This document shows, in pieces, positions 1 to 37,672 of a stretch of DNA of 54,720 bases. The stretch comes from a virus (taxonomy: Duplodnaviria; Caudoviricetes), in IMG/VR virus record IMGVR_UViG_3300012346_000035, positions 1 through 54,720 of that record. The stretch is one strand, 5' to 3'. The notes under the pieces were generated by a model. It searched no databases. It was not told the DNA's origin and saw only the letters and a program-made list of their open reading frames with translations. A program made the translations under genes and the position numbers. Every line of letters starts with the position of its first letter. Within the stretch, counting starts at the first letter, position 1.

Positions 1-1
1 G

Positions 2-6974: not shown

Positions 6975-7487
6975 ATGCCTACTCCTGATGCTGGTTTTGT
7001 AAGTGCACCAATTCCCGGTATGTCTCTAACGAGTGAGCCGGGTAATCGCCCATGGGAGAATCCTCCTATGCTAGTTACTGTAGAAGATGCCCTTGAATTC
7101 TACATTAATAAAATCATTGCAGACTCTAACAGTCATGATGCTGTACTTGAGATGTTAGAGCTACGTCTTCCTGTAGAGAACATTGCTAATCTACTCAACA
7201 AGATGAGTGTGATGGAAGGCTATCATACGATTGACGTAGGTATCCTTGTACTTCCTGCCATTGAAGAAATGATTATGGCTGTAGCAGATATGCATGGAGT
7301 TAAGTATGCAGAGTCAATGGACCAGATCATGGAAGGCTTTACTCCTAACCCTCGTGCTGTACGTCAGGCTATGCAAGAATTAGAGACATCTATGAATGCT
7401 CCTGAAGCTCCTGCTACTCCAGCTCCTATGGAAGAACCTCCTGCAGCTATGGGTTTAATGGCTAGACCACAGAAAGGTATGGAATAA
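6975..7487 (+). CDS. Hypothetical virion-associated protein (start reassigned to ATG 6975)
   Basis: APIPGMSLT...PWENPP motif; ATG just after upstream stop. Confidence 0.6.
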   Translation: MPTPDAGFVSAPIPGMSLTSEPGNRPWENPPMLVTVEDALEFYINKIIADSNSHDAVLEMLELRLPVENIANLLNKMSVMEGYHTIDVGILVLPAIEEMIMAVADMHGVKYAESMDQIMEGFTPNPRAVRQAMQELETSMNAPEAPATPAPMEEPPAAMGLMARPQKGME

Positions 7488-7488
7488 T

Positions 7489-8739
7489 ATGGCATTTGAT
7501 ATAACAGCTCTATTCGCTGGAGTATCTAGCGGTGTAGCAGAGTCTATTGAGACACGTAATAAGCAGATCCGTAATGGTGCAGTTAAGCAATTAGATCAAC
7601 TAGTCTCTGAAGCTGAAGCTAAAGAGAAAGGTCTTAAGACTGAGCGTGATACTCTGTCTCAGCAAGCTAGACAACTTGCCACATTCCGTGGTGCTAATAA
7701 TGTTGGCTTAACACAAGATCAGATCTTAGGTTTAATTCAACAGCCTGAGACAGCTAAAGCTTTGATTGAAGAGTTAAAGAATAAGAAAGACTTATCTGAA
7801 GTAGATATGGCTACTGTATTTAAAGTAGGTAAGCCCGGTACTCAGATGCCTCCAGAAGACTACATTGCTAAGAAGACTTCTATTGCTATTCCTGCCAAAG
7901 AAGAACCTGCTAAAGTTGTACGTGGTGCATTCGGATTTGAATCACCTGCAGTGAAACAAGCTGAAGCTGAGTTTGAAGCTACTAGTGGTCGTAAGGCTTC
8001 TGAAATTAAAGCTATTGCTAGAGGTAAGGCAGATCTAGGTGCAGACTTTAAACCTATGGAAGGTACTATTGATCTGAAGCAGTTCGGTAATCCAGAGTCT
8101 CTGTCTACAGTACAGAATAAACTCCGTGACAACATTGCTAATGGTCAAGACCTCGGTACTCCTGAGAACAAGAAGCTACTCAATAAGCTACGTGCTGATG
8201 CAACTATCAAGACTATGTTTGAAGAAGGTGATGGCGGTAAGCCTCGTAGTACTTCTGCTATTAACTCTGTGCTAGACAAGTCTTTACGTGCTGGCTTAGA
8301 TCCGTTTATAGTTAAAGGTGTTGTACGCTTTGACACACAGACAAATGATTATGTTCCTATCACTGGCGATACTAAAGCTATTGCTGACTTCATGGATCAC
8401 AAGAATAAACTCATTCAGTCTCAGGCTAAAGCATTGGGTATCTTGGATAAAGACGGTAACATCAAAGGTGGTCGTAATGCTTCTGATGCTTTGTTGCCGT
8501 ATGCCAACATTGAAGATGGTAAGGTTGTATCTTGGAAGTCTGCAGTTGTTCCACCTAAAACTGAAGGGGAACCTACTACTCCTCCTGCTGCTGCACCTAA
8601 AGCTACTATATCTGAGAAGCCTCTCACTATTCCTAAGACTGCCGATGGCAAGATTGATGGCACTAAACTGATATCAGGACAGAAGTATACATCTGCTGAT
8701 GGCAGTATTAAAACTTGGAATGGTGTAAGCTGGCAATAA
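7489..8739 (+). CDS. Putative internal virion protein
   Basis: 416 aa helical protein between other internal-protein-like genes. Confidence 0.5.
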   Translation: MAFDITALFAGVSSGVAESIETRNKQIRNGAVKQLDQLVSEAEAKEKGLKTERDTLSQQARQLATFRGANNVGLTQDQILGLIQQPETAKALIEELKNKKDLSEVDMATVFKVGKPGTQMPPEDYIAKKTSIAIPAKEEPAKVVRGAFGFESPAVKQAEAEFEATSGRKASEIKAIARGKADLGADFKPMEGTIDLKQFGNPESLSTVQNKLRDNIANGQDLGTPENKKLLNKLRADATIKTMFEEGDGGKPRSTSAINSVLDKSLRAGLDPFIVKGVVRFDTQTNDYVPITGDTKAIADFMDHKNKLIQSQAKALGILDKDGNIKGGRNASDALLPYANIEDGKVVSWKSAVVPPKTEGEPTTPPAAAPKATISEKPLTIPKTADGKIDGTKLISGQKYTSADGSIKTWNGVSWQ

Positions 8740-12395: not shown

Positions 12396-14303
12396 TTAGA
12401 TACTACAACCACCCGCAGTACAAGACAACATCTGAGCACCTTCTACGTTATCGTCATACTCTTTGAAGTTATCCCAGTCTACTGACTCAGGCACTAACAA
12501 CTTCAATCGATTGTACTCTTCTTCTGTACACTCTTCATACGGGGCTTGCTTGTATGTGCCACCATCCATAGGCAGGAAAGATACCCCTGTAACCTCATCG
12601 AAGTGTTCATATACCCAAGCACCTACCTGCATCCACTCGTCTTCCTTCACAGAGATTGTGACAGATGGCTTGTGTTCACAGTAGTGACGTTGGAATAACA
12701 GCCACAGTTTCAAGTGTTGAATAGCAGATAAGTCTTCACGTAACAGTGCACCATCTGCAACCTTCACAGGGAAACTAAACACAGTAGTGCTATCAGGTTT
12801 CATGAAGCATGGCTCTGCTACGAATCCAGCCTGAATCATAAACTGTGTCAAAGGGTCTTTGTTATCAGCCCGAACCCTGCGAATGTAAAACTTACTATGT
12901 TGAGGATGAATGCCACTAGCAGTAGAACAAAGCTGGCTAACAGTTCCTTCTGGTTTGATCGCAGTGACAGCAACTGACTGATTGATACCAACAGCAGCAG
13001 CGTATTCAGCATTGACAGTAACAGCAAGCTCACGTAGTGCCTCCAATCGTTTAGGTAATTCTGGATCATCAGGGTTATTTAATAAAGCATTGTCAAGGAT
13101 ACCAGTCATTGACACACCAAGCAATGCTTCTTCTTCAGTGTTCTTCTGCCAGATCTTACGTAGGTACGGGAAGTCTGTTAAGGTCGCTTGAAATGTTCCG
13201 AGAATAGTTGCCAACCGTATCTTAGTGGATAGAGTATCAATGCTATCAGTGCTACGCACAATGCAACTAGAAAGATTACAGAACTGGTAAGGTCTAAGAA
13301 TAATCTCTGAGCAAGGATTAGTACCAAACTCATACGAACTGTCACGCCTTCCATTTTTTGCAGCTTGTCTTTGAGATGCATCACGACTGAAAATTCCTCT
13401 CTCACCTGAATGTGATTCATAAATAGATGTCCACTCACGCATGAAGTGTCCAATGCTTGGCTTCTCGTCATACACAGCAGAGTTGTTAGCCAATGCACGT
13501 TGTGCTTGACCATCCCACCAGTTACCTGCTTTAGCATGTGCCATGTTGTCATCTGTCAAGTCTGACAGTGAGATCATTGCTGACCTACGTACTCCACCCA
13601 CAACAACAACTTCCCCGATCTTGCACAGAATGTCATGGCATTCGAGGGAAGATAAACGTCTACCAGCTGCCCCCTTGAACTTGGCAATGACGAACTTAAA
13701 TAAGTCTTCCAAGGGTTTTGGTCCAGATGCCCTGCCTCCAAAGGTCTTGAGTCTTGCACCTGCCTCACGGACTTTATGTAAGTCATACTGTGGCACTTCG
13801 CCAGAGTACAAAAGAGCAATGAGTTGTCGAAGAGATTTAGCCCATCCTTCTTTAGAATCCGAAACCACAATAGTAGTTTGACTACTGAACATGCGATCAG
13901 GTACTTCAGGTAATCTAGATACATACTTCTTCTCCACACTAAATCCTACACCTGTTCCGCATAGGAGGATATACATAGCTTCATCGAATGCTTTAGCATC
14001 ATCAATAGGTAAGTAGGAACAATTGAATGCTGCTACGTTCTGTCTCTCTAGTGCTGGTCCAGAGGTCATGACGGCTCTCATGGATGGCACTACATCTAAA
14101 TCTTTTACTGCTTGTTCTAACTCGGCACGTAACTCTGGAGTTAAAGTGTAATTCTTTTTCTCTTGCAGATGCTTTGTCATAAAGTCAAAGTATCTTGTTA
14201 CTGTCTCACTCCAGTGCTCACGTCTACCGTTCTCGTCTATGTAACGGGAATAGCGACTCTTGGCAATGAAGTCATTGTATGGAGTCATTGTATATTTCGT
14301 CAT
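12396..14303 (-). CDS. nrdJ: Class II (adenosylcobalamin-dependent) ribonucleotide reductase, monomeric RTPR type
   Basis: FNCSY, TNPCSEI (thiyl Cys), QFCNL, KPEGTVSQL, C-terminal CTAGGC; no nrdB partner. Confidence 0.92.
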   Translation of the reverse strand: MTKYTMTPYNDFIAKSRYSRYIDENGRREHWSETVTRYFDFMTKHLQEKKNYTLTPELRAELEQAVKDLDVVPSMRAVMTSGPALERQNVAAFNCSYLPIDDAKAFDEAMYILLCGTGVGFSVEKKYVSRLPEVPDRMFSSQTTIVVSDSKEGWAKSLRQLIALLYSGEVPQYDLHKVREAGARLKTFGGRASGPKPLEDLFKFVIAKFKGAAGRRLSSLECHDILCKIGEVVVVGGVRRSAMISLSDLTDDNMAHAKAGNWWDGQAQRALANNSAVYDEKPSIGHFMREWTSIYESHSGERGIFSRDASQRQAAKNGRRDSSYEFGTNPCSEIILRPYQFCNLSSCIVRSTDSIDTLSTKIRLATILGTFQATLTDFPYLRKIWQKNTEEEALLGVSMTGILDNALLNNPDDPELPKRLEALRELAVTVNAEYAAAVGINQSVAVTAIKPEGTVSQLCSTASGIHPQHSKFYIRRVRADNKDPLTQFMIQAGFVAEPCFMKPDSTTVFSFPVKVADGALLREDLSAIQHLKLWLLFQRHYCEHKPSVTISVKEDEWMQVGAWVYEHFDEVTGVSFLPMDGGTYKQAPYEECTEEEYNRLKLLVPESVDWDNFKEYDDNVEGAQMLSCTAGGCSI

Positions 14304-14700: not shown

Positions 14701-15060
14701 TTAAATCTCCTTGTTGGTAGCTAACTGCCTAATTGCCTTAGCTATGACCGATGCAAAACTGCTACTGGGTGGTATTACTACTGGTGAATCATTAAATCTT
14801 TCTACTAATCTTGCTGCTTCGTCTAGTGCATTAGCTCTATCTGCTGATCCGAACATTTCAAAGTGTGCTACTTCTTCTTCAAGGGTCAGTATAACATCAC
14901 ATAAATTCTCTTGCACTTGCCATAGAGCATACTCTATTTCTGGTCTGTGGTCAAACCACTCAGAGTCTTTAGCTGCAACCATAGCACAAGTAGCAATACC
15001 CAGTGCTCTCTTCAGTGATACCAAGCTGTTATCAAACACTTCATCAGGCACCTGTGCCAT
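14701..15060 (-). CDS. Hypothetical protein
   Basis: ORF with GGAG RBS in operon. Confidence 0.6.
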   Translation of the reverse strand: MAQVPDEVFDNSLVSLKRALGIATCAMVAAKDSEWFDHRPEIEYALWQVQENLCDVILTLEEEVAHFEMFGSADRANALDEAARLVERFNDSPVVIPPSSSFASVIAKAIRQLATNKEI

Positions 15061-15625
15061 TGTCTTCTCCTAGTATATAGTCTGCTGCTTTCAGTTGAAT
15101 CAATTCTCTAGCAGTCAAGTATACATCACTTGCTGGTAGTAACTTTGATTGTATCTTCAATGCACTTAAGCCTGTTGCATCCCGTAGTATCTTAATCATT
15201 CTAGCATTACAGTTCTCTACTTCTTTTACTGCTGACTTGATGTCATGATACTTGTCTGTAATGTCATCCGATAACTGGTGACACATGATGCCTGCATTGG
15301 GTGCAATGTATCGCTCACCCTTAGTGCCACACACAAAGATCAAGAAGCCACCACTCATGATACTACCTAGTCCAATGGTACGGATAGGATGCTTACTGCT
15401 TTTCATAATGTCAATCAGTGCTAGTGACTGGTACAAATCTCCACCTGTAGTGTTGACATAGAGAGTGAGTAACTTATCCTTAGCATCAATGTTTTCATAC
15501 TCAATCCATTTGATGCATCGGTCTATGTTCTCCTCCTCTATATCTCCATGAAGAAAGAACATGTGACTGTCGAGTAGAAGATTATCAATCCTATCCTCTG
15601 CTGTCTGTTCATGTCTACGTACCAC
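15044..15625 (-). CDS. clpP: ClpP-like serine protease
   Basis: LYVNTTGG, GSIMSGG (Ser), IMCHQ (His), DVYLTA (Asp), AD.I tail align with ClpP motifs. Confidence 0.85.
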   Translation of the reverse strand: MVRRHEQTAEDRIDNLLLDSHMFFLHGDIEEENIDRCIKWIEYENIDAKDKLLTLYVNTTGGDLYQSLALIDIMKSSKHPIRTIGLGSIMSGGFLIFVCGTKGERYIAPNAGIMCHQLSDDITDKYHDIKSAVKEVENCNARMIKILRDATGLSALKIQSKLLPASDVYLTARELIQLKAADYILGEDNGTGA

Positions 15626-19199: not shown

Positions 19200-21251
19200 T
19201 TAATTAATATGTACGTCTTTTTGCTCTAACCAATTATCACCCATTTTACTCTCTAATGCAAGGGGAACATTGAAATCTATTGACCATTTATTGTTGATCA
19301 ATCCTACTAGATCTCGCTGTACTCCGTCTATTACTCTGACCGCTTCCTCTAACTCGTCTGGGTGTACATCAATGACGATAGAATCGTGGACAGAATTTAC
19401 TACTCTGCTCTTGTACGGCTTCAGTCTGTTGTAGATTTCTACTAGGGCTAAAGGTACGATGTCTGCTGTAGCGAATGCTTGAACTGGGTAGTTCTTGATA
19501 GCTGTGAAGTGTGTCACTGTGCCATCACGCTTACGCTGTACATCAGGGAATGCAAACTCCCTATTGCTAGGGATCTTTATGTACTTATAATTCAGGGCTT
19601 GCTTGGCTAGAACACTGTGCCATTTAGCAATGCCTGTGTACTTCTCAAGGAAGTGCTTGTAGTATGCAGCCTCAGATGGGGTACGACCATAGCCTGTGGC
19701 ACCGTAGAGTGGGGCAAAGGTATGTGCTTTAGCATCCTGTCTACTAGTAGGCTGTCCTGCATCTGTAATAACCTTGGCTGTGTATGAGTGCACATCAAAC
19801 CCTTCACTCACCTCCTGCATAGCACGTTGATCTTGGGATAAGAATGCAGCTACACGAAACTCTAACTGTGCAAAGTCTGCCTCCATAATCTTGCCACCCT
19901 CAAAGCGAGATACAAACACACGCTTAACTGGGAACGTACCACCACGAGGCATGTTCTGCATGTTCGGATTAGAACCACTGAACCTGCCAGTAGAAGTGAT
20001 GTGCTGATTCAAACGTACATGCAGTAAGCCATCAGGCTTTAGGTAGGAAGCAATACCCTCAACGAAGTTACTTAGATAACTATCTAATGCTGACAGTCTA
20101 CGTAACTTACCTAAGAACTCTACGGCATCAGTCATACCCTTGGTTACAGCCACCCGTTCAAGGGTCTCAAGGTTATCCTTGCCAGTACCAAAGCCATTGG
20201 CACTAGCCCACTTAGCATTAGGTGCAGTGAACTTTAATCCAGCTAACTCTTTGGTAGGCTTGAACTCAAACCCAACACCGTTACATGTAACACATTTGTT
20301 AGACTTCTTAAAGGGTGAGCCATCCTTCTTCTTCTTAAAGACAAAGCCCTTACCATCACAGGCATCACACTTAACTGCCTTGGTCTTGTACACATTCGTG
20401 AAGTGTCGCTTGACTGCATCCTTGAACTCTGTATCTTTCATGTACGGAGTAATAGCTGTCATCCAAGCTGTCTTGTTATGTGGCTTACGGCTATACACAA
20501 TCCATGACAACTGCTCAGGGCTATTGAGATTGATTGGTGTATCACCCATCAGTGTACGTACATGAGACTGCAGTAGTTTGACAATGTCATCACGCTCTGT
20601 CTCGAACTGTAAACGTACTGCATCGAGTGCCTTCAAGTCTACCTTGATACCTGTGTGGTAGATCTTAGTCAGTACCATAGCTACTTCGTTAGACATATCA
20701 ATCGTCTCACGTAAGCCTGCATCTTGAGGTGTCAACAGCTTAGCCTGAATAGATTTGTAGATACCTTCGGTAGATCCTAAGTCATGCTCAAGGTATTCGA
20801 CTAGCTCAGCATGCGGGATGTCACGGGTACTGTATCCATTCTTGAAGTAAGTCTTCAAGGTGTCTTGCTTAAGGATCTCACACCCGTGTCGCATAGCAAC
20901 TGAACCTAAGTCAGAGGGCAGCTTAACACCACGCTGTAATACGTAGTCACTAATCATCGTATCGAAGATAGGACCATCGTACTTAAAGCCAGACTCCCAT
21001 AGCCACACTAAGTCGTGGTTAAGGTTATGTCCAATCATCAAGGTAGTCTTGTCTAATACATCCTGCAGTGCCTTGTGATTAGCCTCAGCATCTTCCTTAA
21101 CTTCGGAGTGATCAAATGTATACACACCATACACACCATCTAACATCTTGTATCCAACCATCACCAAGGTATTGCCAGTTTCAAAGGGGTCTAAGTGTTT
21201 CTTACCCCCTCTGTTACTGACTGTGTTCTCTACGTCAAGTGTAATGATCAT
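19200..21251 (-). CDS. polA: Family A DNA polymerase with 3'-5' exonuclease and inserted DnaJ-type zinc finger
   Basis: LDVE exo I, TSTGRFS, DFAQLE motif A, RQDAKAHTFAPLYG motif B, VHDS motif C; CDACDGKG and CVTCNGVG repeats. Confidence 0.95.
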   Translation of the reverse strand: MIITLDVENTVSNRGGKKHLDPFETGNTLVMVGYKMLDGVYGVYTFDHSEVKEDAEANHKALQDVLDKTTLMIGHNLNHDLVWLWESGFKYDGPIFDTMISDYVLQRGVKLPSDLGSVAMRHGCEILKQDTLKTYFKNGYSTRDIPHAELVEYLEHDLGSTEGIYKSIQAKLLTPQDAGLRETIDMSNEVAMVLTKIYHTGIKVDLKALDAVRLQFETERDDIVKLLQSHVRTLMGDTPINLNSPEQLSWIVYSRKPHNKTAWMTAITPYMKDTEFKDAVKRHFTNVYKTKAVKCDACDGKGFVFKKKKDGSPFKKSNKCVTCNGVGFEFKPTKELAGLKFTAPNAKWASANGFGTGKDNLETLERVAVTKGMTDAVEFLGKLRRLSALDSYLSNFVEGIASYLKPDGLLHVRLNQHITSTGRFSGSNPNMQNMPRGGTFPVKRVFVSRFEGGKIMEADFAQLEFRVAAFLSQDQRAMQEVSEGFDVHSYTAKVITDAGQPTSRQDAKAHTFAPLYGATGYGRTPSEAAYYKHFLEKYTGIAKWHSVLAKQALNYKYIKIPSNREFAFPDVQRKRDGTVTHFTAIKNYPVQAFATADIVPLALVEIYNRLKPYKSRVVNSVHDSIVIDVHPDELEEAVRVIDGVQRDLVGLINNKWSIDFNVPLALESKMGDNWLEQKDVHIN

Positions 21252-30705: not shown

Positions 30706-30734
30706 AGTTAGTGCCGAACATTCGACAGTAGAAC
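30706..30734. repeat. ~25-bp dispersed repeat, copy 1
   Basis: AGTTAGTGCCGAACATTCGACAGTAGAAC. Confidence 0.9.
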
Positions 30735-31988: not shown

Positions 31989-32176
31989 AGCTCCACCCTT
32001 ATCCTTACGGATTCAAACATCTTCCGACCTTCATACATGAACAGGTTCATTGCAGCACGATCTCTGTTAGAGATGTCCTCATCCTCTAGCATCTCCTTGA
32101 GTGTGAGTAGGATGTCTGATGTACCTATGCCATTGCCATATTCCTTGATGATCTCGATTGCCTTAGTGATATCCAT
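31985..32176 (-). CDS. Hypothetical early protein
   Basis: GGAGG RBS. Confidence 0.5.
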   Translation of the reverse strand: MDITKAIEIIKEYGNGIGTSDILLTLKEMLEDEDISNRDRAAMNLFMYEGRKMFESVRIRVEL

Positions 32177-32186
32177 ATACCCTCCG

Positions 32187-32351
32187 TTAAAACTGATTGT
32201 CGAATGATGAGAACTCCCCATTTACAATGGCAAGTACCTCGTAGATAGAACCCTTCGCATCCTCTACATACGGGTCATCGTCTACCTCTTTCAGATCCCG
32301 CAATGCTATGCCTAACAACTCCACAACTCTGTTGGTCATCTCCTGATTCAT
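32187..32351 (-). CDS. 54-aa hypothetical protein (not in ORF track)
   Basis: MNQEMTNRVVELLGIALRDLKEV...; ATGA overlap, GGAGG RBS. Confidence 0.5.
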   Translation of the reverse strand: MNQEMTNRVVELLGIALRDLKEVDDDPYVEDAKGSIYEVLAIVNGEFSSFDNQF

Positions 32352-32686
32352 ACAACCTCCGTAATTAAACTGCGATAGTCAATCTCTGGTTCACCATAGG
32401 TGATAGATCCATCATGCTCAAGCTGAGACTTCTCGAACCATGACATATAGTCATCTGATTCTACGAACCATTCCAGTACATACTCTCTGCAATAGTCATC
32501 ACTTCGTGAGATGTCCTTGCTTACCATACCTACAATGCTAGGGTATGTGTCAATATCACTAGGGATATTCCGAACCTTGTACTCTGAGCCACCCTTATAC
32601 TTCCAGTATTGTGGACACACACCCTCCCCATCCCAGTCATGTGCTCCGTAATTCTCCATGTATTGAGTACGAATAACGATAATCAT
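32348..32686 (-). CDS. Conserved early protein
   Basis: TQYMENYGAHDWDG.G.CPQYWK.KGG. Confidence 0.65.
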   Translation of the reverse strand: MIIVIRTQYMENYGAHDWDGEGVCPQYWKYKGGSEYKVRNIPSDIDTYPSIVGMVSKDISRSDDYCREYVLEWFVESDDYMSWFEKSQLEHDGSITYGEPEIDYRSLITEVV

Positions 32687-32698
32687 ATTAATCTCCGA

Positions 32699-33418
32699 TT
32701 AAATGTGAACAACGAAACCTGATACATCCTTACGAGCAGGACCTTTAGCACGAAGACCCACAATCACACCTTTCGGGTCATCGATACGAGCATCATGCAA
32801 GTCACCATCAATTACCCTTCGGGACATAAAGGTGACAGGCAATTCCTTGCCATGGAAAACTACTGCCATGTTTGCACTAGAAGACTGTGCCAATTTGACC
32901 TGATTCTTGTAGGTATCTACACCAGAGTATGAGAATGTGAGTGAGTAATTCTCAGGTGTCTTACCTAATCGTGATGCATGCTTGGTGTAATCGTAGAACT
33001 CGATTTCAGGGAAAGCCTGTGGAATGCCCTTAAATGGCTTGCCATTACGAGTACAGGCTTGAAGCTCCCAAGATATATCCGAGAAGCAATTGAGTCTGAC
33101 ACGAGCCGTCTTGCCCTGTTTGCTAGCCTTCTTTACAAGGGCTTCCAACTCAGTCACTAATTGTGCTTTGAATTCAGTAGGATTGGACATCCAAAAATCA
33201 GTCTTGCGTTGACGAGACAGTTGAACATTGCTGAAGACACCACGACCTGCATTCTTCAGGCATGGGGTCATACACTGTGCAGCCTTACTACCTGCACAGA
33301 TTGTGTTGTTAGGCATCAGGGACATTTCTGCATACAGATGATTGCCACCGACAACGGCATTCGTTTTCTCGATCTTAGCGTTAGCTACTGTGGATAACAG
33401 GGTGATTTGTGATGTCAT
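32699..33418 (-). CDS. GP88-like protein
   Basis: Three-Cys cluster, RLN..SD, FYDYTK, LTFS, DGD.HD.R..D, GL.AKG. Confidence 0.6.
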   Translation of the reverse strand: MTSQITLLSTVANAKIEKTNAVVGGNHLYAEMSLMPNNTICAGSKAAQCMTPCLKNAGRGVFSNVQLSRQRKTDFWMSNPTEFKAQLVTELEALVKKASKQGKTARVRLNCFSDISWELQACTRNGKPFKGIPQAFPEIEFYDYTKHASRLGKTPENYSLTFSYSGVDTYKNQVKLAQSSSANMAVVFHGKELPVTFMSRRVIDGDLHDARIDDPKGVIVGLRAKGPARKDVSGFVVHI

Positions 33419-33431
33419 ATAAACTCCGTTT

Positions 33432-33456
33432 AGTTAGTGACGAACATTCGACAGTA
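33432..33456. repeat. ~25-bp dispersed repeat, copy 2
   Basis: AGTTAGTGACGAACATTCGACAGTA. Confidence 0.9.
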
Positions 33457-33474
33457 CCGCTCTAAAACATTTCC

Positions 33475-33519
33475 AGTATCAAGGCAGAGGGATTGGCTTG
33501 TAAATAGGGACTTTCCCTA
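33475..33519 (-). promoter_or_regulatory. Early promoter with upstream palindrome
   Basis: TTTACA-N18-GATACT preceded by TAGGGA-AAG-TCCCTA. Confidence 0.55.
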
Positions 33520-33534
33520 CGGTATCGTAGATAC

Positions 33535-33921
33535 CTAATCCCAAGATTTCTTGTCTCCGCATTGCTCATTGTGTGCATATCCTGCGAGGTATTGCTTGAC
33601 TTGATCGTGGGTTAGACCGATGACACGCTGTCCATTGCCTGTCCCTTCGGGATAGTAGTGTGGATCACGAGGTCTACCATAGTAGCTATCGGCACTACCC
33701 CTGTCCCAAGGGCTACCATGACTACGATCAACTTCGTTGAAGTCTTCATCGAGAATGCCCCCATTTTGCAAAGCAACTTCGATATTGAATACGAAGTCAT
33801 TGATTACCTTGGGCATATCCATGCCTGCTGAATCGAATGCAGAGCGAAGCTCACCAACTAGGTTCAATGCATCTGTTTCGTAACCTTTAAAGGTTAAGTA
33901 CTTTTCTTGTGCTGTAATCAT
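33535..33921 (-). CDS. Hypothetical early protein
   Basis: HGSPWDRGSADSYY motif; GGAG RBS. Confidence 0.6.
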   Translation of the reverse strand: MITAQEKYLTFKGYETDALNLVGELRSAFDSAGMDMPKVINDFVFNIEVALQNGGILDEDFNEVDRSHGSPWDRGSADSYYGRPRDPHYYPEGTGNGQRVIGLTHDQVKQYLAGYAHNEQCGDKKSWD

Positions 33922-33922
33922 A

Positions 33923-34102
33923 TTAATCTCCGATTAATTCAAGGGTGTCTACTTCGATTGTTTCATTGGCTTCAGCCTGTGCTTTCAGCACTTCAGCAAA
34001 TGCTTCTGCATCTGAGCCTTTAGTGAATACCTTCACTACTTCGCTACTCCAATTGTTACGCTCCACTTCTACATGCGAGGTAACTACATAGACTTGCTTC
34101 AT
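33923..34102 (-). CDS. 59-aa early protein (not in ORF track)
   Basis: MKQVYVVTSHVEVERNNWSSEVVKVF...; GGAG RBS. Confidence 0.6.
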   Translation of the reverse strand: MKQVYVVTSHVEVERNNWSSEVVKVFTKGSDAEAFAEVLKAQAEANETIEVDTLELIGD

Positions 34103-34114
34103 ATTAATCTCCGA

Positions 34115-34237
34115 TTAAAGTGAGGTTGAAGTGATAGGGTTGATCTTTGCTTTGATAAAAGCATTGAAGGTGGATTCGGTGAAAGGGATAAAGCCTTTGG
34201 CTTTAGCATAAGCTACATAGTCTTGATAAGTTGGCAT
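34115..34237 (-). CDS. 40-aa early protein (start reassigned)
   Basis: MPTYQDYVAYAKAKG...; GGAG RBS. Confidence 0.55.
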   Translation of the reverse strand: MPTYQDYVAYAKAKGFIPFTESTFNAFIKAKINPITSTSL

Positions 34238-34250
34238 AGATAATCTCCGA

Positions 34251-34514
34251 TTATTTCTTGTAGAAAAATACTGTTCCTGCATCGTAAAACTCAGCCCACA
34301 ATCCCATGTTCTCAAGAACATGAGCCAGTTTAGGGTGAACACCGAAGGTGCTATCGTAGCCGTAGTAATCGAATGCTTCCCATTGCCCTTCATCTCCGAT
34401 GTAGCTACCTTCACCTGTCCAGATAGTACCTACATGATCGGGACTGAATTCGCCTCCATCTTTGAACCAAATCTTGGGGAATTTTTTAGCTAAACGCTCC
34501 ATCTTTTTTTCCAT
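34251..34514 (-). CDS. Hypothetical early protein
   Basis: FGVHPKL...AEFYDAGT; GGAG RBS. Confidence 0.6.
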   Translation of the reverse strand: MEKKMERLAKKFPKIWFKDGGEFSPDHVGTIWTGEGSYIGDEGQWEAFDYYGYDSTFGVHPKLAHVLENMGLWAEFYDAGTVFFYKK

Positions 34515-34695
34515 TGCCTAATCTCCGATTAAGTTAAGCCATGAACCCTGTGCCAGTTCCATACATACACTACATAACATCATGGCGTGACACATACATA
34601 CTGCATATACATCACATGGCACAGGACATAGCAAGTACATAGTAGGCATCATGACCTACTGCATTTGCACAACACAAAACGGGTACTACTAACGC

Positions 34696-34715
34696 CAAAA
34701 GCCCCGTTAGGGGCT
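34696..34715 (-). terminator. Possible intrinsic terminator
   Basis: AGCCCC-TAAC-GGGGCT then short T-tract. Confidence 0.45.
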
Positions 34716-34745
34716 AATGGGTACTACACAACTTGTAACCGAAGG

Positions 34746-35546
34746 TTAGTAGGTAGCTGATTCAGCTAGGATTAGCGTAGCTATTTCAGCAAGTGAGATA
34801 TGCTTTAGCTTCGCTAGAGTGATTACGGCACTAGCAATGCCTTCGGCAGTATCTTCAGCGAGTTTTAGTGACGAACATTCGACAGTAGAACTAGCTTCGC
34901 TAGAATCTGACTCATCACTCACATCGTTACGCTCAGCTTTTACTTCGTAATTCTCAGCCGATTTGCCTTCTTTACGAAGTAACTGGCGAAGATAACTAGC
35001 AGAACAAGAGTTAATATCTAACTCTTTCATTTTTGCCTTGATGTCAACCCAGTTCTCGGATAGCCACATTGCATCGCTACGATCCTGTCTAGACATATTC
35101 TTTAAGGCAGTAGCCTTAACTGCTTGACCGAATTCCTTGTCTGACTTGCCGATTACAGAGCGAAGCTCTTGTAAAACCTTACCGATTTCACACAGCTTTT
35201 CAAGCTGACTACGCTTTTGTTTGACGATACTAGTGTAAACACTAGCTGAATGCTCAATGGCTTGACCAAGGGTAAAACCCTTAACCTCACCGAATTGACG
35301 AGACATAACCTCGCTGAATTCGTTACGATACTTCGTATCCTTCGCTAATTCCGCATCGGAATGCTTTTCAGCTTTCTTGGTCGGTACAGTCTTCGACTGT
35401 TTCGTAGGTTTCAGTTTGCTATCAACCTTAACGGTTGATGTCTTGACTTCCGTAGTAGGAGTCTCAGGGATTAAGCCTTTGGCTTTAAAGATTTCCAAGT
35501 TCTTAACTTCGTTAGCCAGTAAAGCGGAGCGGATTGATTTTGCCAT
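34746..35546 (-). CDS. First large early protein, weak DUF3102-like central region
   Basis: AAGGA RBS; EIGKVLQELR...EFG...S...RS.AM. Confidence 0.6.
   Translation of the reverse strand: MAKSIRSALLANEVKNLEIFKAKGLIPETPTTEVKTSTVKVDSKLKPTKQSKTVPTKKAEKHSDAELAKDTKYRNEFSEVMSRQFGEVKGFTLGQAIEHSASVYTSIVKQKRSQLEKLCEIGKVLQELRSVIGKSDKEFGQAVKATALKNMSRQDRSDAMWLSENWVDIKAKMKELDINSCSASYLRQLLRKEGKSAENYEVKAERNDVSDESDSSEASSTVECSSLKLAEDTAEGIASAVITLAKLKHISLAEIATLILAESATY
34865..34891. repeat. ~25-bp dispersed repeat, copy 3 (inside CDS)
   Basis: TTAGTGACGAACATTCGACAGTAGAAC. Confidence 0.9.
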
Positions 35547-35598
35547 GATATTTATCCTTTCAGGATAGTTGTGAGTAAAGTTGTAAGTAAACTAAAGT

Positions 35599-35751
35599 TT
35601 AGATGCCGAATCGTTTGCTATCAAATTTATTTGATTGGTAAGCAACGAAGATTAGCCAAAGTGTATCGAAAGATACACCGAGACGATGTAATGTATACCA
35701 AAATCCGAAGGATTGGAGGAGGTCTTTAGTGCCGAGAAGGGATTTTGCCAT
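35599..35751 (-). CDS. 50-aa first early gene (not in ORF track)
   Basis: MAKSLLGTKDLLQSFGFWYTLHRLGVSFDTLWLIFVAYQSNKFDSKRFGI; TAAGGA RBS. Confidence 0.55.
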   Translation of the reverse strand: MAKSLLGTKDLLQSFGFWYTLHRLGVSFDTLWLIFVAYQSNKFDSKRFGI

Positions 35752-35768
35752 GATGATTTTTCCTTATT

Positions 35769-35861
35769 TAGTTTATCTTATTTACTTAAAAGAGAATATA
35801 TTTATATCCCCTTTCACTTTCAGTTAAAGGGTAAATATATTCTCGTAAATAAGATAAACTA
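35769..35861. repeat. Long AT-rich imperfect inverted repeat
   Basis: 17-bp, 13-bp and 6-bp nested perfect arms. Confidence 0.9.
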
Positions 35862-35942
35862 TTTCTGGGGCTACTTTTATATCTAGTCTTTAGACTAGGG
35901 GATCGGTTCGGTGAGGCAATTTCGAGACGGAAATCCCTTACT

Positions 35943-35995
35943 ATAGTAAGAAAATCATGCCAGTTGTCAACTTTTTATTTTTAATATATTTTTTA
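35943..35995 (-). promoter_or_regulatory. Main early sigma70 promoter with UP-like A-tract
   Basis: TTGACA-N16-TACTAT, A/T tracts upstream, points into early arm. Confidence 0.7.
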
Positions 35996-36052
35996 GATCG
36001 TAGATCTAAGGTCCCCCATTAAAAAATATGCTCACCCTTGAATGAGGGATTT

Positions 36053-36076
36053 GTGCCGAACATTCGACAGTAGAAC
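36053..36076. repeat. ~25-bp dispersed repeat, copy 4
   Basis: GTGCCGAACATTCGACAGTAGAAC. Confidence 0.9.
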
Positions 36077-36201
36077 ACCGAAGGTGAAGTCACCCAAAGT
36101 GAAAACACCGAAGGTGAATAGCTTAGTGGGATACCGATTGTGAGAAGTGAAAGTGGAACACCGAAGGTGAAAAGCATGGCGAGTGAAACACCGAAGGTGA
36201 A
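36074..36201 (+). repeat. Four exact copies of AACACCGAAGGTGAA
   Basis: Starts 36074, 36104, 36157, 36187. Confidence 0.95.
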
Positions 36202-36322
36202 GGGGTTAGAGTGATTAAGCCATACACCGCCAAGGGGTATCGGTTACACCGACCCTGAAATACCCCATTTTAACCACACTTTTTACTTCGTAACTGATAC
36301 CCTATCAGTTGCTATATGACTG

Positions 36323-36335
36323 TAAGTCATTGATT
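36323..36335 (-). promoter_or_regulatory. IHF-consensus site in the divergent non-coding region
   Basis: AATCAATGACTTA fits WATCAANNNNTTR. Confidence 0.5.
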
Positions 36336-36819
36336 TGTAAGGGCATCACTCGTCATCACACTTGCATCATTCGCTCTATGTGCCAGTTATGTGATGCGTA
36401 TGTGTGTTTGCCTACAGGTGATGGGTGGGCGTGGGTCACGGGGGGTCCTAGCGTTAGTTGTATATGGACTCTTACACAGATCAGGTATTTAAAAGGGTTA
36501 GTGTACACTCACATGTATCACTTGTCCCCCTCACTCATATGTTCCACATAAACCACACACCCTTGAACCTCACATTAAGTACCCCACGTAAACTGCCAAC
36601 ACATCTTCTGTACACATGAAATGCTTAGGGCTATGGTACAATCACTCTAGAAGACACTAGGAAGCTCTCAGAGAAGAGATCTCACATGCTGTGATACCTA
36701 GGGTGCTTCTTTAAGTGAAACAGCATAGCGTGTGGTTTTAGTCTGTCTGTCTCTATATAACTAGAAGTAGTATATAGATGTACAAAGCTAGATGTTTTAG
36801 TGATAAGTAAAAATAAAGC

Positions 36820-36849
36820 TTGACAAGATCTGCAAAGTACGGTTAAACT
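36820..36849 (+). promoter_or_regulatory. Sigma70-like promoter for late arm
   Basis: TTGACA-N18-TAAACT. Confidence 0.55.
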
Positions 36850-37124
36850 ACGTCTAACAGACACTCACTTAAAGTGATACAGTTAAGTGTTAGTAGTTAA
36901 ATACTAAATACATATAACTATAAAAACATATAAGTATAAAGATAGTTAAACTAAAGAACATATAAGTGTTACATTTAAGTGAGTAGAGAAGTAGACTTTG
37001 TCAAGAACTATTCGTTTACCTTTGAATGCATTTAAGTGAGTCACTTACAGTGATACCTATCTGTACACACTAAGAGTCCGAGTTCTGAAGAACGAGGGCG
37101 GTCAAATAAAAACAACAATAAGCA

Positions 37125-37153
37125 TTGACAATGTTAGAAAAACCAGTAAAACT
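37125..37153 (+). promoter_or_regulatory. Sigma70-like promoter
   Basis: TTGACA-N16-TAAAACT. Confidence 0.45.
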
Positions 37154-37406
37154 ATCCGTACCTAAAAGAACAAGGAAGAAAGTCCAGCTACGTGATGCAT
37201 TCGTACTGGAAGATTTCTATTTGGCTGTTAGGAATAACAGACTAGACTCTATACATGTACCCCACAGTGATGTATTCTTTGTCAAAGCTGCAATGGAGAA
37301 TAGACTAGGGATGAAGTTCACCCTTAAAGACATTGAAGCTGCTATGAGAGCCGAAGGCTGGAATGAATCCAGAGTTCTTAAACCTAAGAGATACTTGTAC
37401 AAATGA
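37131..37406 (+). CDS. Conserved hypothetical protein, first late gene (start uncertain)
   Basis: HVPHSDVFFV...AMRAEGW. Confidence 0.55.
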   Translation: MLEKPVKLSVPKRTRKKVQLRDAFVLEDFYLAVRNNRLDSIHVPHSDVFFVKAAMENRLGMKFTLKDIEAAMRAEGWNESRVLKPKRYLYK

Positions 37407-37672
37407 TTAAAAAAGGTAAGGAAGAGTTTGCTGGTTATAACAAACCAAAGAAGACTCCTCAACATCCTACTAAGTCACATGCTGTGCTAGCCAAGGAAGG
37501 CAGTACAGAAAAGCTTATCCGATTTGGACAACAAGGTGTATCAGGTGCTGGATCTAATCCTTCGACACCTGCAGAGAAAGCTAGACAAAAGTCATTCAAG
37601 GCAAGACACGCTAAGAATATTTCAAAGGGTAAGCTATCAGCTGCATACTGGGCTGACAAGGTTAAGTGGTAA
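37403..37672 (+). CDS. Basic conserved phage protein
   Basis: IRFGQQG, SFKARH, SAAYWA.KVKW. Confidence 0.7.
   Translation: MIKKGKEEFAGYNKPKKTPQHPTKSHAVLAKEGSTEKLIRFGQQGVSGAGSNPSTPAEKARQKSFKARHAKNISKGKLSAAYWADKVKW

Follow-up and report, generated by a model that had tools for sequence, protein, structure and literature searches.

A dense, conserved field of C-GNA-G triloop inverted repeats in the first early genes of an HMO-2011-type podophage

The sequence analyzed here (the window) is the entire IMG/VR virus record IMGVR_UViG_3300012346_000035 (Duplodnaviria; Caudoviricetes), which has 54,720 bases, is of IMG/VR class linear, and has a CheckV completeness of 94%. It is the whole genome of an HMO-2011-type podophage, and at positions 32688–36293 it carries, on both strands, a field of 30 perfect inverted repeats, each closed by C-G around a GNA triloop (C-GNA-G hairpins), which is the subject of this report. 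The family A DNA polymerase of the phage shares 62% identity with the enzyme of Puniceispirillum phage HMO-2011 and 55–60% with the enzymes of Roseobacter phages CRP-345, CRP-1, CRP-207, CRP-603, and CRP-2. The genes lie in two arms that diverge out of a non-coding stretch at ~35.95–36.85 kb. The plus-strand arm, which runs from ~36.85 kb across the contig end to 12.1 kb, holds the structural and packaging genes, including terminase, an SU10-type portal, the major head protein, and tail proteins; the minus-strand arm, which runs from ~35.97 kb down to 12.4 kb, holds the early and replication genes, including integrase, primase, a DnaB-like helicase, the polymerase, a T7-type endonuclease I, a ClpP-like protease, and a class II ribonucleotide reductase. 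The best sigma-70-like promoter for the early operon (TTGACA-16-TACTAT, minus strand, 35943–35970, read from 35970 to 35943) is a prediction by consensus match only, and an A/T-rich tract lies in front of it. An open reading frame (ORF) of 895 codons, a tail or virion gene (PHROG 19943, DUF7483, SPRY), crosses the contig junction (54485–54720 joined to 1–2458, plus strand); the contig ends are therefore not virion ends and the start is arbitrary, and the record is a closed or permuted assembly cut within a tail or virion gene. The preliminary description of this DNA had put the field at the early end of the genome: what the sequence shows is a field that begins the early operon on its promoter-proximal side, next to the divergent non-coding control region. 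With an arbitrary contig start, a position at a physical or first-entering end would be conjecture, and so would the suggested action against nucleases or defense sensors or as handles for an ejected or host protein. A terminus at ~35734, where one contig of run X1 ends and another starts next to a 25-nt direct repeat, was considered and read as an assembly break. The public runs that match the sequence are contigs from aquatic, freshwater, or other metagenomes, with no RNA run among those listed, and four of them, when mapped to the window, gave no sites at which molecules start or stop.

The field was delimited by a script that looked for perfect inverted repeats closed by C-G around a GNA loop, with stems of 4 bp or more. 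The scan returned 48 such repeats in the whole genome, 30 of them in 32688–36293, with GNA on the plus strand in 13 and on the minus strand in 17; these are exactly the numbers counted in the preliminary description, and its eight quoted examples all lie where it had placed them. Half of the stems are 4 bp long (15), and the others measure 5 bp (8), 6 bp (5), or 7 bp (2), while the loops are GAA (20), GGA (7), and GTA (3). In 1000 dinucleotide-preserving shuffles, the same region contained a mean of 0.29 hairpins (standard deviation 0.53, maximum 2), which bears out the earlier claim of an excess far above chance, made against an estimate of ~0.5. The bare CGNAG pentamer is itself ~3-fold enriched in the region (51 copies vs 17.8 in shuffles, maximum 39), and CGNAG/CTNCG pentamers sit within stems of at least 4 bp in 30 of 51 cases (59%) there, compared with 18 of 257 (7%) outside. 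The enrichment also persisted in the codon-preserving comparison that the preliminary description had proposed: the seven coding sequences (CDSs) of the field contain 17 hairpins, as opposed to 1.36 (maximum 7) in 2000 synonymous-codon shuffles, and the 266-aa gene g266 alone contains 10, with 0.59 expected from such shuffles. Sixteen of the 30 hairpins are wholly within CDSs, in varied amino-acid contexts and with codon phases represented 3, 4, and 9 times.

The excess is confined to one class of structure. Among the 59 perfect triloop repeats in the region, 30 are C-GNA-G, and every other combination of closing pair and loop occurs at most three times; the closing pair is 5'C-G3' and not G-C, the G-GAA-C class being absent from the in-region list, and T-GAA-A occurs three times. 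Repeats with loops of 2, 4, 5, or 6 nt showed no enriched class of their own in the region, the top 5-nt-loop class (TCGGAGA, 5 copies) being the GGA cassette described below with its closing pair left open. As for its extent, the field has a sharp edge near 36.3 kb, and the hairpins of the structural arm are at chance (4 vs 1.33 and 1 vs 0.62), but it is not strictly confined, as had been claimed earlier: the opposite edge fades gradually, and the remaining early arm (12396–32687) still holds 13 hairpins vs 1.2 expected, a number reached in 0 of 300 shuffles. About one third of the copies are non-independent, namely 5–6 repeated cassettes and four tandem repeats at 36073–36199. The hairpin excess is real, far beyond chance, and specific to one loop and closing-pair class.

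The hairpins fall into three sub-classes. The first comprises 5–6 GGA-loop copies that form, on the coding strand, a stop–Shine-Dalgarno (SD)–start cassette, in which the TAA of the upstream gene is part of the 5' arm, GGAG is made up of the loop and the closing G, and the ATG follows 1–4 nt past the 3' arm. All are on the minus strand: TTAATC-GGA-GATTAA (32688–32702) lies between the GP88-like gene and the next gene, TAAAC-GGA-GTTTA (33420–33432) has the SD in its loop immediately ahead of the ATG of the GP88-like gene, ATTAATC-GGA-GATTAAT (33922–33938), TTAATC-GGA-GATTAA (34104–34118), and ATAATC-GGA-GATTAT (34240–34254) are further stop-SD-start cassettes, and TAATC-GGA-GATTA (34519–34531), again with the SD in the loop, is upstream of gene 34251–34514. 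The second sub-class consists of four plus-strand tandem copies of AACACC-GAA-GGTGAA (36076–36199) in the non-coding control region, with hairpins at 36076, 36106, 36159, and 36189 (spacing 30, 53, and 30 nt) in repeat units of ~23 nt (36066–36201). A fifth copy of their core is found within a CDS (CACC-GAA-GGTG, 34340–34350, plus strand, in CDS 34251–34514). Judged by their sequence, the tandem repeats look like iterons or operators; among close relatives of the phage (introduced below), L011 has four copies, and L012 and L006 have one each. A repeat family of the repetitive extragenic palindrome or miniature inverted-repeat transposable element (REP/MITE) kind was rejected for the field, common sequence being limited to the 5–6 cassettes and to the tandem repeats with their CDS copy.

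The third sub-class, ~19 copies with unrelated stems, is found mostly inside genes. GGTATC-GTA-GATACC (33521–33535, plus) lies at the stop of gene 33535–33921, and three more hairpins are within that CDS, namely TCCC-GAA-GGGA (33642–33652, minus), TCAAC-GAA-GTTGA (33728–33740, minus), and GAGC-GAA-GCTC (33842–33852, plus). CATC-GGA-GATG (34391–34401, minus) is within CDS 34251–34514, and AATCC-GAA-GGATT (35702–35714, plus) is within a 50-aa ORF (35599–35751). The intergenic TTAGATC-GTA-GATCTAA (35993–36009, plus) lies just upstream of the predicted early promoter and the A/T-rich tract, and TTAC-GAA-GTAA (36283–36293, minus), also intergenic, is the last hairpin of the field. With respect to the predicted promoter, six copies are located upstream in a stretch of ~300 bp (35993–36293), and 24 are in the transcribed part (the first ~3.3 kb of the early operon), where GNA is on the sense strand in 16 and on the template strand in 8. 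No flank consensus was found outside the hairpins among the 19 non-cassette copies. A weak G/C column at +14 beside the hairpins was dismissed, since in 77 hairpins from relatives it dropped to 60%, and we take the G enrichment left at +8, +14, and +17 to reflect codon periodicity. Helical periodicity of the hairpin spacings was absent (resultant 0.21 at 10.5 bp, n = 57), and intrinsic terminators (a G+C-rich stem plus a T run) numbered 0 in 32000–37500, as opposed to 3.8 in shuffles.

The densest part of the field is the first long early gene, g266 (34746–35546, minus strand, 266 aa, no family), a distant homologue of CRP-345 gp01. It has no PHROG, Pfam, or PDB-sequence match above noise, its only lead in the ESM Atlas is a weak one to DUF3102 (0.91, 147 features), and neither tblastn of g266 nor a nucleotide search of the field region against the phage collection gave a match. 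The preliminary description had counted ten hairpins within this CDS; ten are wholly inside, and an eleventh straddles the stop codon. An IMG/VR search with the GP88-like protein (gene 32699–33418) retrieved seven close relatives (L006–L012, 74–97% protein identity), all seven of which have the same dense field, with 12–26 hairpins per locus, directly upstream of the GP88-like gene. We then aligned g266 from the window with that from six relatives and found 18 hairpin sites. Starting from the stop codon, the window copies are TAACC-GAA-GGTTA (34736–34748, plus), which straddles the stop and reads AAACC-TAC-GGTTT in relatives; TAGC-GTA-GCTA (34773–34783, plus), present in 7/7 aligned sequences and 5–6 bp long in three; TAGC-GAA-GCTA (34806–34816, minus), in 4/7; TGCC-GAA-GGCA (34838–34848, minus), which in four relatives is ATGCT-GAA-AGCAT, the closing pair being swapped on both sides; CTAGC-GAA-GCTAG (34891–34903, minus), in 7/7 with four different stems; TTAC-GAA-GTAA (34940–34950, minus), seen in the window sequence only; TTAC-GAA-GTAA (34972–34982, plus), in 7/7, with a GTA loop in L011; AGAGC-GAA-GCTCT (35157–35169, plus), with GGAAC/GTTCC and GAAC/GTTC in relatives; GATAC-GAA-GTATC (35327–35339, minus), a site with three different perfect stems among relatives; ACAGTC-GAA-GACTGT (35386–35400, minus), with CCAGTC/GACTGG in L006; and TAAC-GAA-GTTA (35504–35514, minus), whose stem is 5 bp in L006 and L007.

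Single sites in the alignment thus carry 3–4 different perfect stems: at one, GATAC/GTATC, GACTC/GAGTC, and GTCATC/GATGAC occur in different sequences, and another has CTAGC, CTACC, TTAGC, and TAAC stems. Loop changes between GAA and GTA leave the GNA pattern intact, TAA or AAA loops occur in some copies, and hairpin sites are gained and lost between relatives at a high rate. Over the 11 window hairpins with their 50 pairs, 89.5% of the cells are paired, compared with 21–40% when the partners are slid by 1–3 columns, and 11 of the 50 pairs show two-sided changes, compared with 0–3 in the slid controls and a mean of 5.3 in shuffles, 0 of 500 of which reached 11. As the structure was taken from one of the aligned sequences, the measure of paired cells is favored by this choice and the count of double changes is not. 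Selection on structure, which had been proposed from varying stems around a fixed loop, follows both from that pattern, with the closing pair fixed as well, and from the compensation in the relatives. These results indicate that the pairing is under selection, compensatory substitutions keeping it while the stem sequence and the encoded amino acids drift.

A comparison with related phages, which the preliminary description had called for, extended the field beyond the close relatives. The early 2.9 kb of HMO-2011 contain 10 hairpins vs 0.22 expected (remaining genome, 4 vs 3.6), the first 3.3 kb of CRP-345 contain 6 vs 0.24 (remaining genome, 4 vs 3.7), and the first 1.9 kb of CRP-1 contain 5 vs 0.08 (bases 1901–50000, 6 vs 3.2, the scan ending before the last 4 kb). 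CRP-207, CRP-603, and CRP-2 have 0 hairpins in the first 3.3 kb, and HTVC033P and CRP-212 have one each in the first 9 kb and no field; in these five field-negative genomes the scanned region begins at the first annotated gene, and for CRP-603, CRP-2, HTVC033P, and CRP-212 it covers the first 9 kb. The field is inherited within a clade of HMO-2011-type phages, and its absence from sister phages makes it a trait of one sub-lineage rather than of the whole phage type.

The early gene content of these phages points to one candidate partner of the field, an L5-gp82-like gene (PF25735; 30792–31163, minus strand). It is the sole early gene common to the window, HMO-2011, CRP-345, and CRP-1 and absent from the five field-negative HMO-type genomes, and it is present in 5/7 of the IMG/VR relatives, the contigs of the other two (L009 and L010) ending before its position. 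Among 72 unrelated GP88-bearing loci, only L052 has an L5-gp82-like gene, and only L052 shows a hairpin excess (61.5% GC; 17 hairpins in 20.7 kb vs 4.5 expected, maximum 12 of 200 shuffles). In this viral contig, which carries GP88-like and gp82-like genes, 6 C-GNA-G hairpins lie in 1.2 kb at 7170–8384. We then surveyed 80 IMG/VR loci with the gp82-like gene, five of them contigs already analyzed, with a cut-off of p<1e-3 for excess. The excess was present in 47/80 (722 hairpins vs 122.8 expected given their pentamers) and in 0/71 control loci (136 vs 117). Hairpin density in the gp82-like loci peaked at 2.1 per kb 1–3 kb upstream of the gene and was ~0.1–0.2 per kb beyond −6 and +5 kb, and the loops were GAA (426), GTA (219), GGA (50), and GCA (27). 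On a protein tree of the gp82-like family, which has at least 2282 relatives in the protein database, the positive state needs at least 9 changes, a patchy relation. A gene-family scan of the 80 loci (±10 kb) found no family in all positive loci besides gp82, which was the search key; the next best were integrase (31/48) and GP88 (28/48). The AlphaFold2 (AF2) model of the gp82-like protein is confident (pLDDT 90.9), with an all-beta-plus-one-helix architecture, and going by this model the protein may have a new fold. The association between gp82 and the field is real, but it may only mark a shared early-gene module and is a lead rather than a mechanism; the L5-gp82-like protein is, on this basis, a candidate reader of the hairpins.

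Several other features lie in or near the control region and the early arm. A 25-nt repeat is common to the starts of g266 (35536–35560) and of the upstream 50-aa ORF (35741–35765), and both proteins begin MAKS. A 15-nt motif occurs in four exact same-orientation copies (30716–30730, 33442–33456, 34873–34887, and 36058–36072), with similarity reaching ~24–27 nt. Three of the copies are intergenic; the fourth, in g266, is retained by all six aligned relatives although the sequence around it varies. Two of the four have a hairpin 2 nt upstream on the coding strand. The motif may be an operator or promoter element. Three overlapping A/T-rich direct repeats with a 16-nt period (36905–36967) are located in the long non-coding leader of the plus-strand arm. 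The family A polymerase (19200–21251, minus) has a weak match to a DnaJ-type CXXCXGXG zinc finger between its exonuclease and polymerase parts (E 1.9e-4, under the cut-off), and HMO-2011 gp12 is annotated likewise. The distal end of the early arm carries the ClpP-like protease gene (15044–15625, minus) and the class II (B12-type) ribonucleotide reductase gene (12396–14303, minus).

The preliminary description had likened the repeats to the unusually stable d(C-GNA-G) hairpins and to the promoter hairpins of phage N4, and the published rules for both agree with this. According to a 2026 review (PMC13037366), only GNA among the 64 triloops forms a DNA mini-hairpin, with GAA the most stable (melting temperature by central loop base: A 76 > G 73 > C 71 > T 70 °C); nearest-neighbor parameters miss the special stability of the mini-hairpin, and single-stranded DNA-binding protein (SSB) binds it poorly. 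For the version with a tetraloop, the melting temperature given is 39 °C for RNA, r(GCGAAAGC), and 76.5 °C for DNA (PMC13037366). The N4 hairpins, with 5–7 bp stems, are reported to extrude when Mg2+ is present and the superhelical density is −0.035, and to do so in vivo if gyrase is active, extrusion being enabled by the C:G closing pair together with the 5'G and 3'A of the loop (PMC4496689). By this comparison, the fixed features of the field match the DNA mini-hairpin and N4 promoter-hairpin rules.

When the same scan was applied to the first 6 kb of N4, it returned exactly three hairpins (at 94, 563, and 4552, upstream of gp1, gp2, and gp15), which are P1–P3 of the literature; all three have GNA on the template strand and contain the GC-GNA-GC heptamer. 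The window field shares with P1–P3 an identical core (GNA triloop, 5'C-G3' closing pair, and a variable stem, 5–7 bp in N4) and an early-region location. N4, however, has 3 copies, all intergenic, with a conserved −17 to +1 region, read by a 3500-aa virion polymerase, whereas the field has 30 copies in both orientations, 16 of them wholly inside CDSs and half with 4 bp stems. A purine at the loop center (−11) is found in 27/30 field hairpins and a stem of 5–7 bp in 15/30, but GNA is on the template strand for leftward transcription in only 13/30, the heptamer, whose −8 G is read by the N4 enzyme (PMC4496689), is present in 5/30 and missing from 25/30, and neither a conserved flank, a start site (+1), nor a −17 to +1 consensus was found beside the field hairpins. 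No RNA polymerase was matched by Pfam or PHROG in the large virion proteins; PF00940 had no match in the window, but the control was likewise silent. The AF2 model of the 1105-aa virion protein is all-helical and of low confidence (pLDDT 60.7), Foldseek matched it to helical-repeat proteins only (E≥0.04) and to no polymerase, no notable PDB-sequence match was obtained, and its nearest Atlas clusters bearing a Pfam family carry LPD38, LPD3, or MuF_C. An N4-type promoter set was rejected on heptamer, flank and start consensus, orientation, and intergenic position, and no RNA polymerase was found in these searches; the field shares its kind of DNA element with N4 without being a promoter set of that type.

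Other known systems share parts of the design. Mini-hairpin cores occur at the primase sites of G4, St-1, and alpha3 and in RSF1010 ssiA (CCGAAGG), where SSB leaves them free (PMC13037366). The window hairpins likewise have the core, on both strands and near iteron-like repeats; the primase and single-strand initiation (ssi) signals, however, are one or two elements, each ~40 nt long and flanked by defined sequence, in an origin whose place is known, whereas the window has dozens of bare 11–17-nt hairpins over 3.6 kb of coding DNA. The ops sequences of Bacteroides PSE and PSA contain GCGAAGC and GCGTAGC (PMC11685472). The ops hairpins (RfaH; Bacteroides UpxY, NusG paralogues) resemble the field in being promoter-proximal, on the sense strand, and built on the same core, but ops is one conserved 12-nt sequence that lies in an untranslated leader and has its own cognate factor, whereas the field is variable in sequence and has many copies, most inside genes and a third on the other strand. 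An ops element was accordingly rejected for the field on sequence and position, its stems varying, its flanks showing no conservation, 16/30 copies lying wholly inside CDSs, and 8 of the 24 transcribed copies having GNA on the template strand.

Many small repeats are spread across phage early operons, some at gene junctions, in the T4-type intercistronic hairpins, the promoter–stem-loop (PeSL) cassettes, and the stoperators of mycobacteriophage L5. These elements are defined by sequence, as an RNA tetraloop hairpin, a promoter plus stem-loop, and a 13-bp repressor site, respectively, whereas in the window only the loop and the pairing are conserved.

The reading that we favor, tentatively and with confidence that stays short of an even balance, is that the field is made up of structural elements under selection at the DNA level, which would serve the start of early transcription or priming as a structure-specific mark. 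Negative supercoiling or unwinding (by gyrase, divergent early transcription, or origin opening) would let the repeats extrude or fold as SSB-resistant mini-hairpins, as suggested by the published work on the motif, and these would then serve as structure-specific marks in an early process. The likeliest such process would be the loading or positioning of a protein that initiates transcription of the early genes or the priming of DNA, as at N4 promoters and the G4 and RSF1010 signals; the mark would lie at the promoter-proximal end of the early arm, and the selected property would be the number and density of hairpins rather than their exact position. A rather unlikely competitor is that the hairpins act in the early mRNA, by translational coupling or SD masking at junctions and by stabilizing or pausing inside genes. 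It accords with the location of 24/30 copies downstream of the predicted promoter, 16 of them with sense-strand GNA, and with the 5–6 TAA-TC-GGAG-ATTA-N-ATG cassettes, whose 5' arm holds the stop and whose loop holds the SD. Over the 80 related loci, moreover, a start codon (ORF ≥40 aa) follows within 0–9 nt downstream of 75/444 sense hairpins vs 18/278 on the other strand, and of 15/34 GGA-loop hairpins; this excess before start codons implies that the cassette sub-class probably acts in mRNA too, and the 5–6 GGA cassettes probably double as mRNA translational-coupling hairpins. The design is not limited to the window: in contig L150 (7550–8403), junction hairpins with a GAA loop and a GG(T/A)AA 3' arm (e.g., TTACC-GAA-GGTAA) stand 5–6 nt before the ATG, and, by its sequence, this is a recurrence of the SD-in-hairpin design. 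As for the field as a whole, six copies upstream of the predicted promoter favor DNA, as do the template-strand GNA copies, which are conserved with covariation like the others; in a transcript, these eight would have UNC loops, yet they are kept by compensatory changes. The fixed features are those of the DNA mini-hairpin rule, and the only measured RNA counterpart named in PMC13037366 is the far less stable r(GCGAAAGC) given above. RNA nearest-neighbor energies average −1.8 kcal/mol, with 5/30 at 0, including one site conserved in 7/7, and allowing G.T (G.U) pairs adds only 1–2 hairpins per field. The sense bias of the hairpins (2:1) equals the background set by CGNAG pentamers as such in the coding DNA of this genome, where the early arm has 1.8:1 and the structural arm 1.3:1, so that no strand-specific function is required. 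Certain observations weigh against the DNA-level reading, however. The G.T test has low power for 4–5 bp stems, and DNA nearest-neighbor energies are also weak (mean −1.3 kcal/mol); the DNA-stability argument therefore rests on the published special stability, which such parameters do not capture. Fifteen of the 30 stems are only 4 bp, below the 5–7 bp for which N4 extrusion has been shown, and any folding or extrusion of the field repeats is a prediction from sequence. All copies in HMO-2011 (10/10) and CRP-345 (6/6) have sense-strand GNA, which speaks for the mRNA and fits an RNA-level or non-template-strand function too. Promoter-like sites are as frequent as in shuffles (13 vs 13.0), so that the position of the early promoter is a consensus match only, and the sister phages CRP-207, CRP-603, and CRP-2 without the field show that it is not essential to the phage type. 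With regard to a reader, 13 of the 47 gp82-like loci with at least 5 kb upstream lack a field (29 are positive and 5 intermediate), L5 itself, with gp82 and gp88, is not enriched (6 vs 3.25, p=0.11), and the gp82-like model has no PDB fold match (Foldseek none at E≤0.001; best VIA Z 2.5).

Somewhat less likely than action in mRNA is that the hairpins are single-strand initiation (priming) signals of an origin in or beside the divergent control region, used by the T7-type primase and DnaB-type helicase after unwinding. Mini-hairpin cores at the primase sites and ssiA set a precedent, the hairpins are on both strands, and the phage has its own Zn-ribbon/Toprim primase, DnaB-like helicase, and family A polymerase. 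The primase (258 aa) has a CxxC...C...C motif and a weak Toprim match, and the motif ruled out a further idea, that of a primase without a zinc-binding domain and hence in need of hairpins. Four iteron-like direct repeats and the A/T-rich tract lie in the control region (35.94–36.2 kb), and the cumulative GC skew has its minimum at 34–36 kb; the skew, however, is confounded by gene orientation. A spread of 3.6 kb, mostly in genes and with up to 30 copies, is far above any described origin, and CRP-207, CRP-603, and CRP-2 have the same replication genes and no field. That absence tells equally against a neutral origin, which we consider improbable, in which the field would be a mutational by-product of template switching ("quasi-palindrome correction") at stable CGNAG cores in often single-stranded DNA. 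Template switches alter both arms together and so mimic compensatory change, and both the high turnover of sites between relatives and the tandem duplication of hairpin units in the C-terminal part of g266 in relatives are in keeping with it. The CGNAG pentamer itself is enriched, however, no enrichment is seen for GNNA tetraloop cores of equal stability, the excess recurs at the corresponding genomic place in phages with only ~60% polymerase identity and in one of 61.5% GC, and palindromes that change amino acids persist within genes. Very unlikely, and the least probable of the alternatives, is that of N4-type promoters for a virion-delivered or phage-encoded hairpin-specific RNA polymerase. 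The structural motif, the loop-center purine, and five upstream copies (35993–36199) with GNA on the would-be template strand for leftward early transcription agree with it, but no RNA polymerase emerged from the Pfam/PHROG scans or the 1105-aa model, 17/30 copies are in the wrong orientation, and the heptamer, flank, and CDS counts given above do not fit, nor does the good predicted sigma-70 promoter ahead of the operon. Returning to DNA-level marks, a bolder version, which we regard as doubtful in its full form, is that the field is an unrecognized structure-coded element: arrays of 10–30 supercoil-extrudable mini-hairpins in the coding sequence of the first early genes, kept by selection on pairing and copy number, would be read by a dedicated early phage protein (PF25735 being the prime suspect) as a hairpin-based early control or counter-defense system across a large clade of uncultivated aquatic phages.

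The uses of mini-hairpins named in the 2026 review are the G4-type origins, RSF1010 ssiA, and the three N4 promoters, and such reports are said there to be "still limited in number" (PMC13037366). Our searches of main texts for hairpins in HMO-2011 or for GNA-triloop phage hairpins returned no report of such hairpin fields. Here, the d(C-GNA-G) motif occurs as a dense, covarying array inside protein-coding early genes. Dozens of metagenomic contigs have kept it, as have marine phages in culture, namely HMO-2011 of SAR116 and the Roseobacter phages CRP-345 and CRP-1. Selection on the secondary structure of the DNA would thus override the choice of codons, and even of amino acids, in a double-stranded DNA phage. 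With cultured hosts, field-less sister phages, and defined loop rules, the system is a testable one, and a reader protein, if one exists, would define a new means of marking or controlling early phage DNA.

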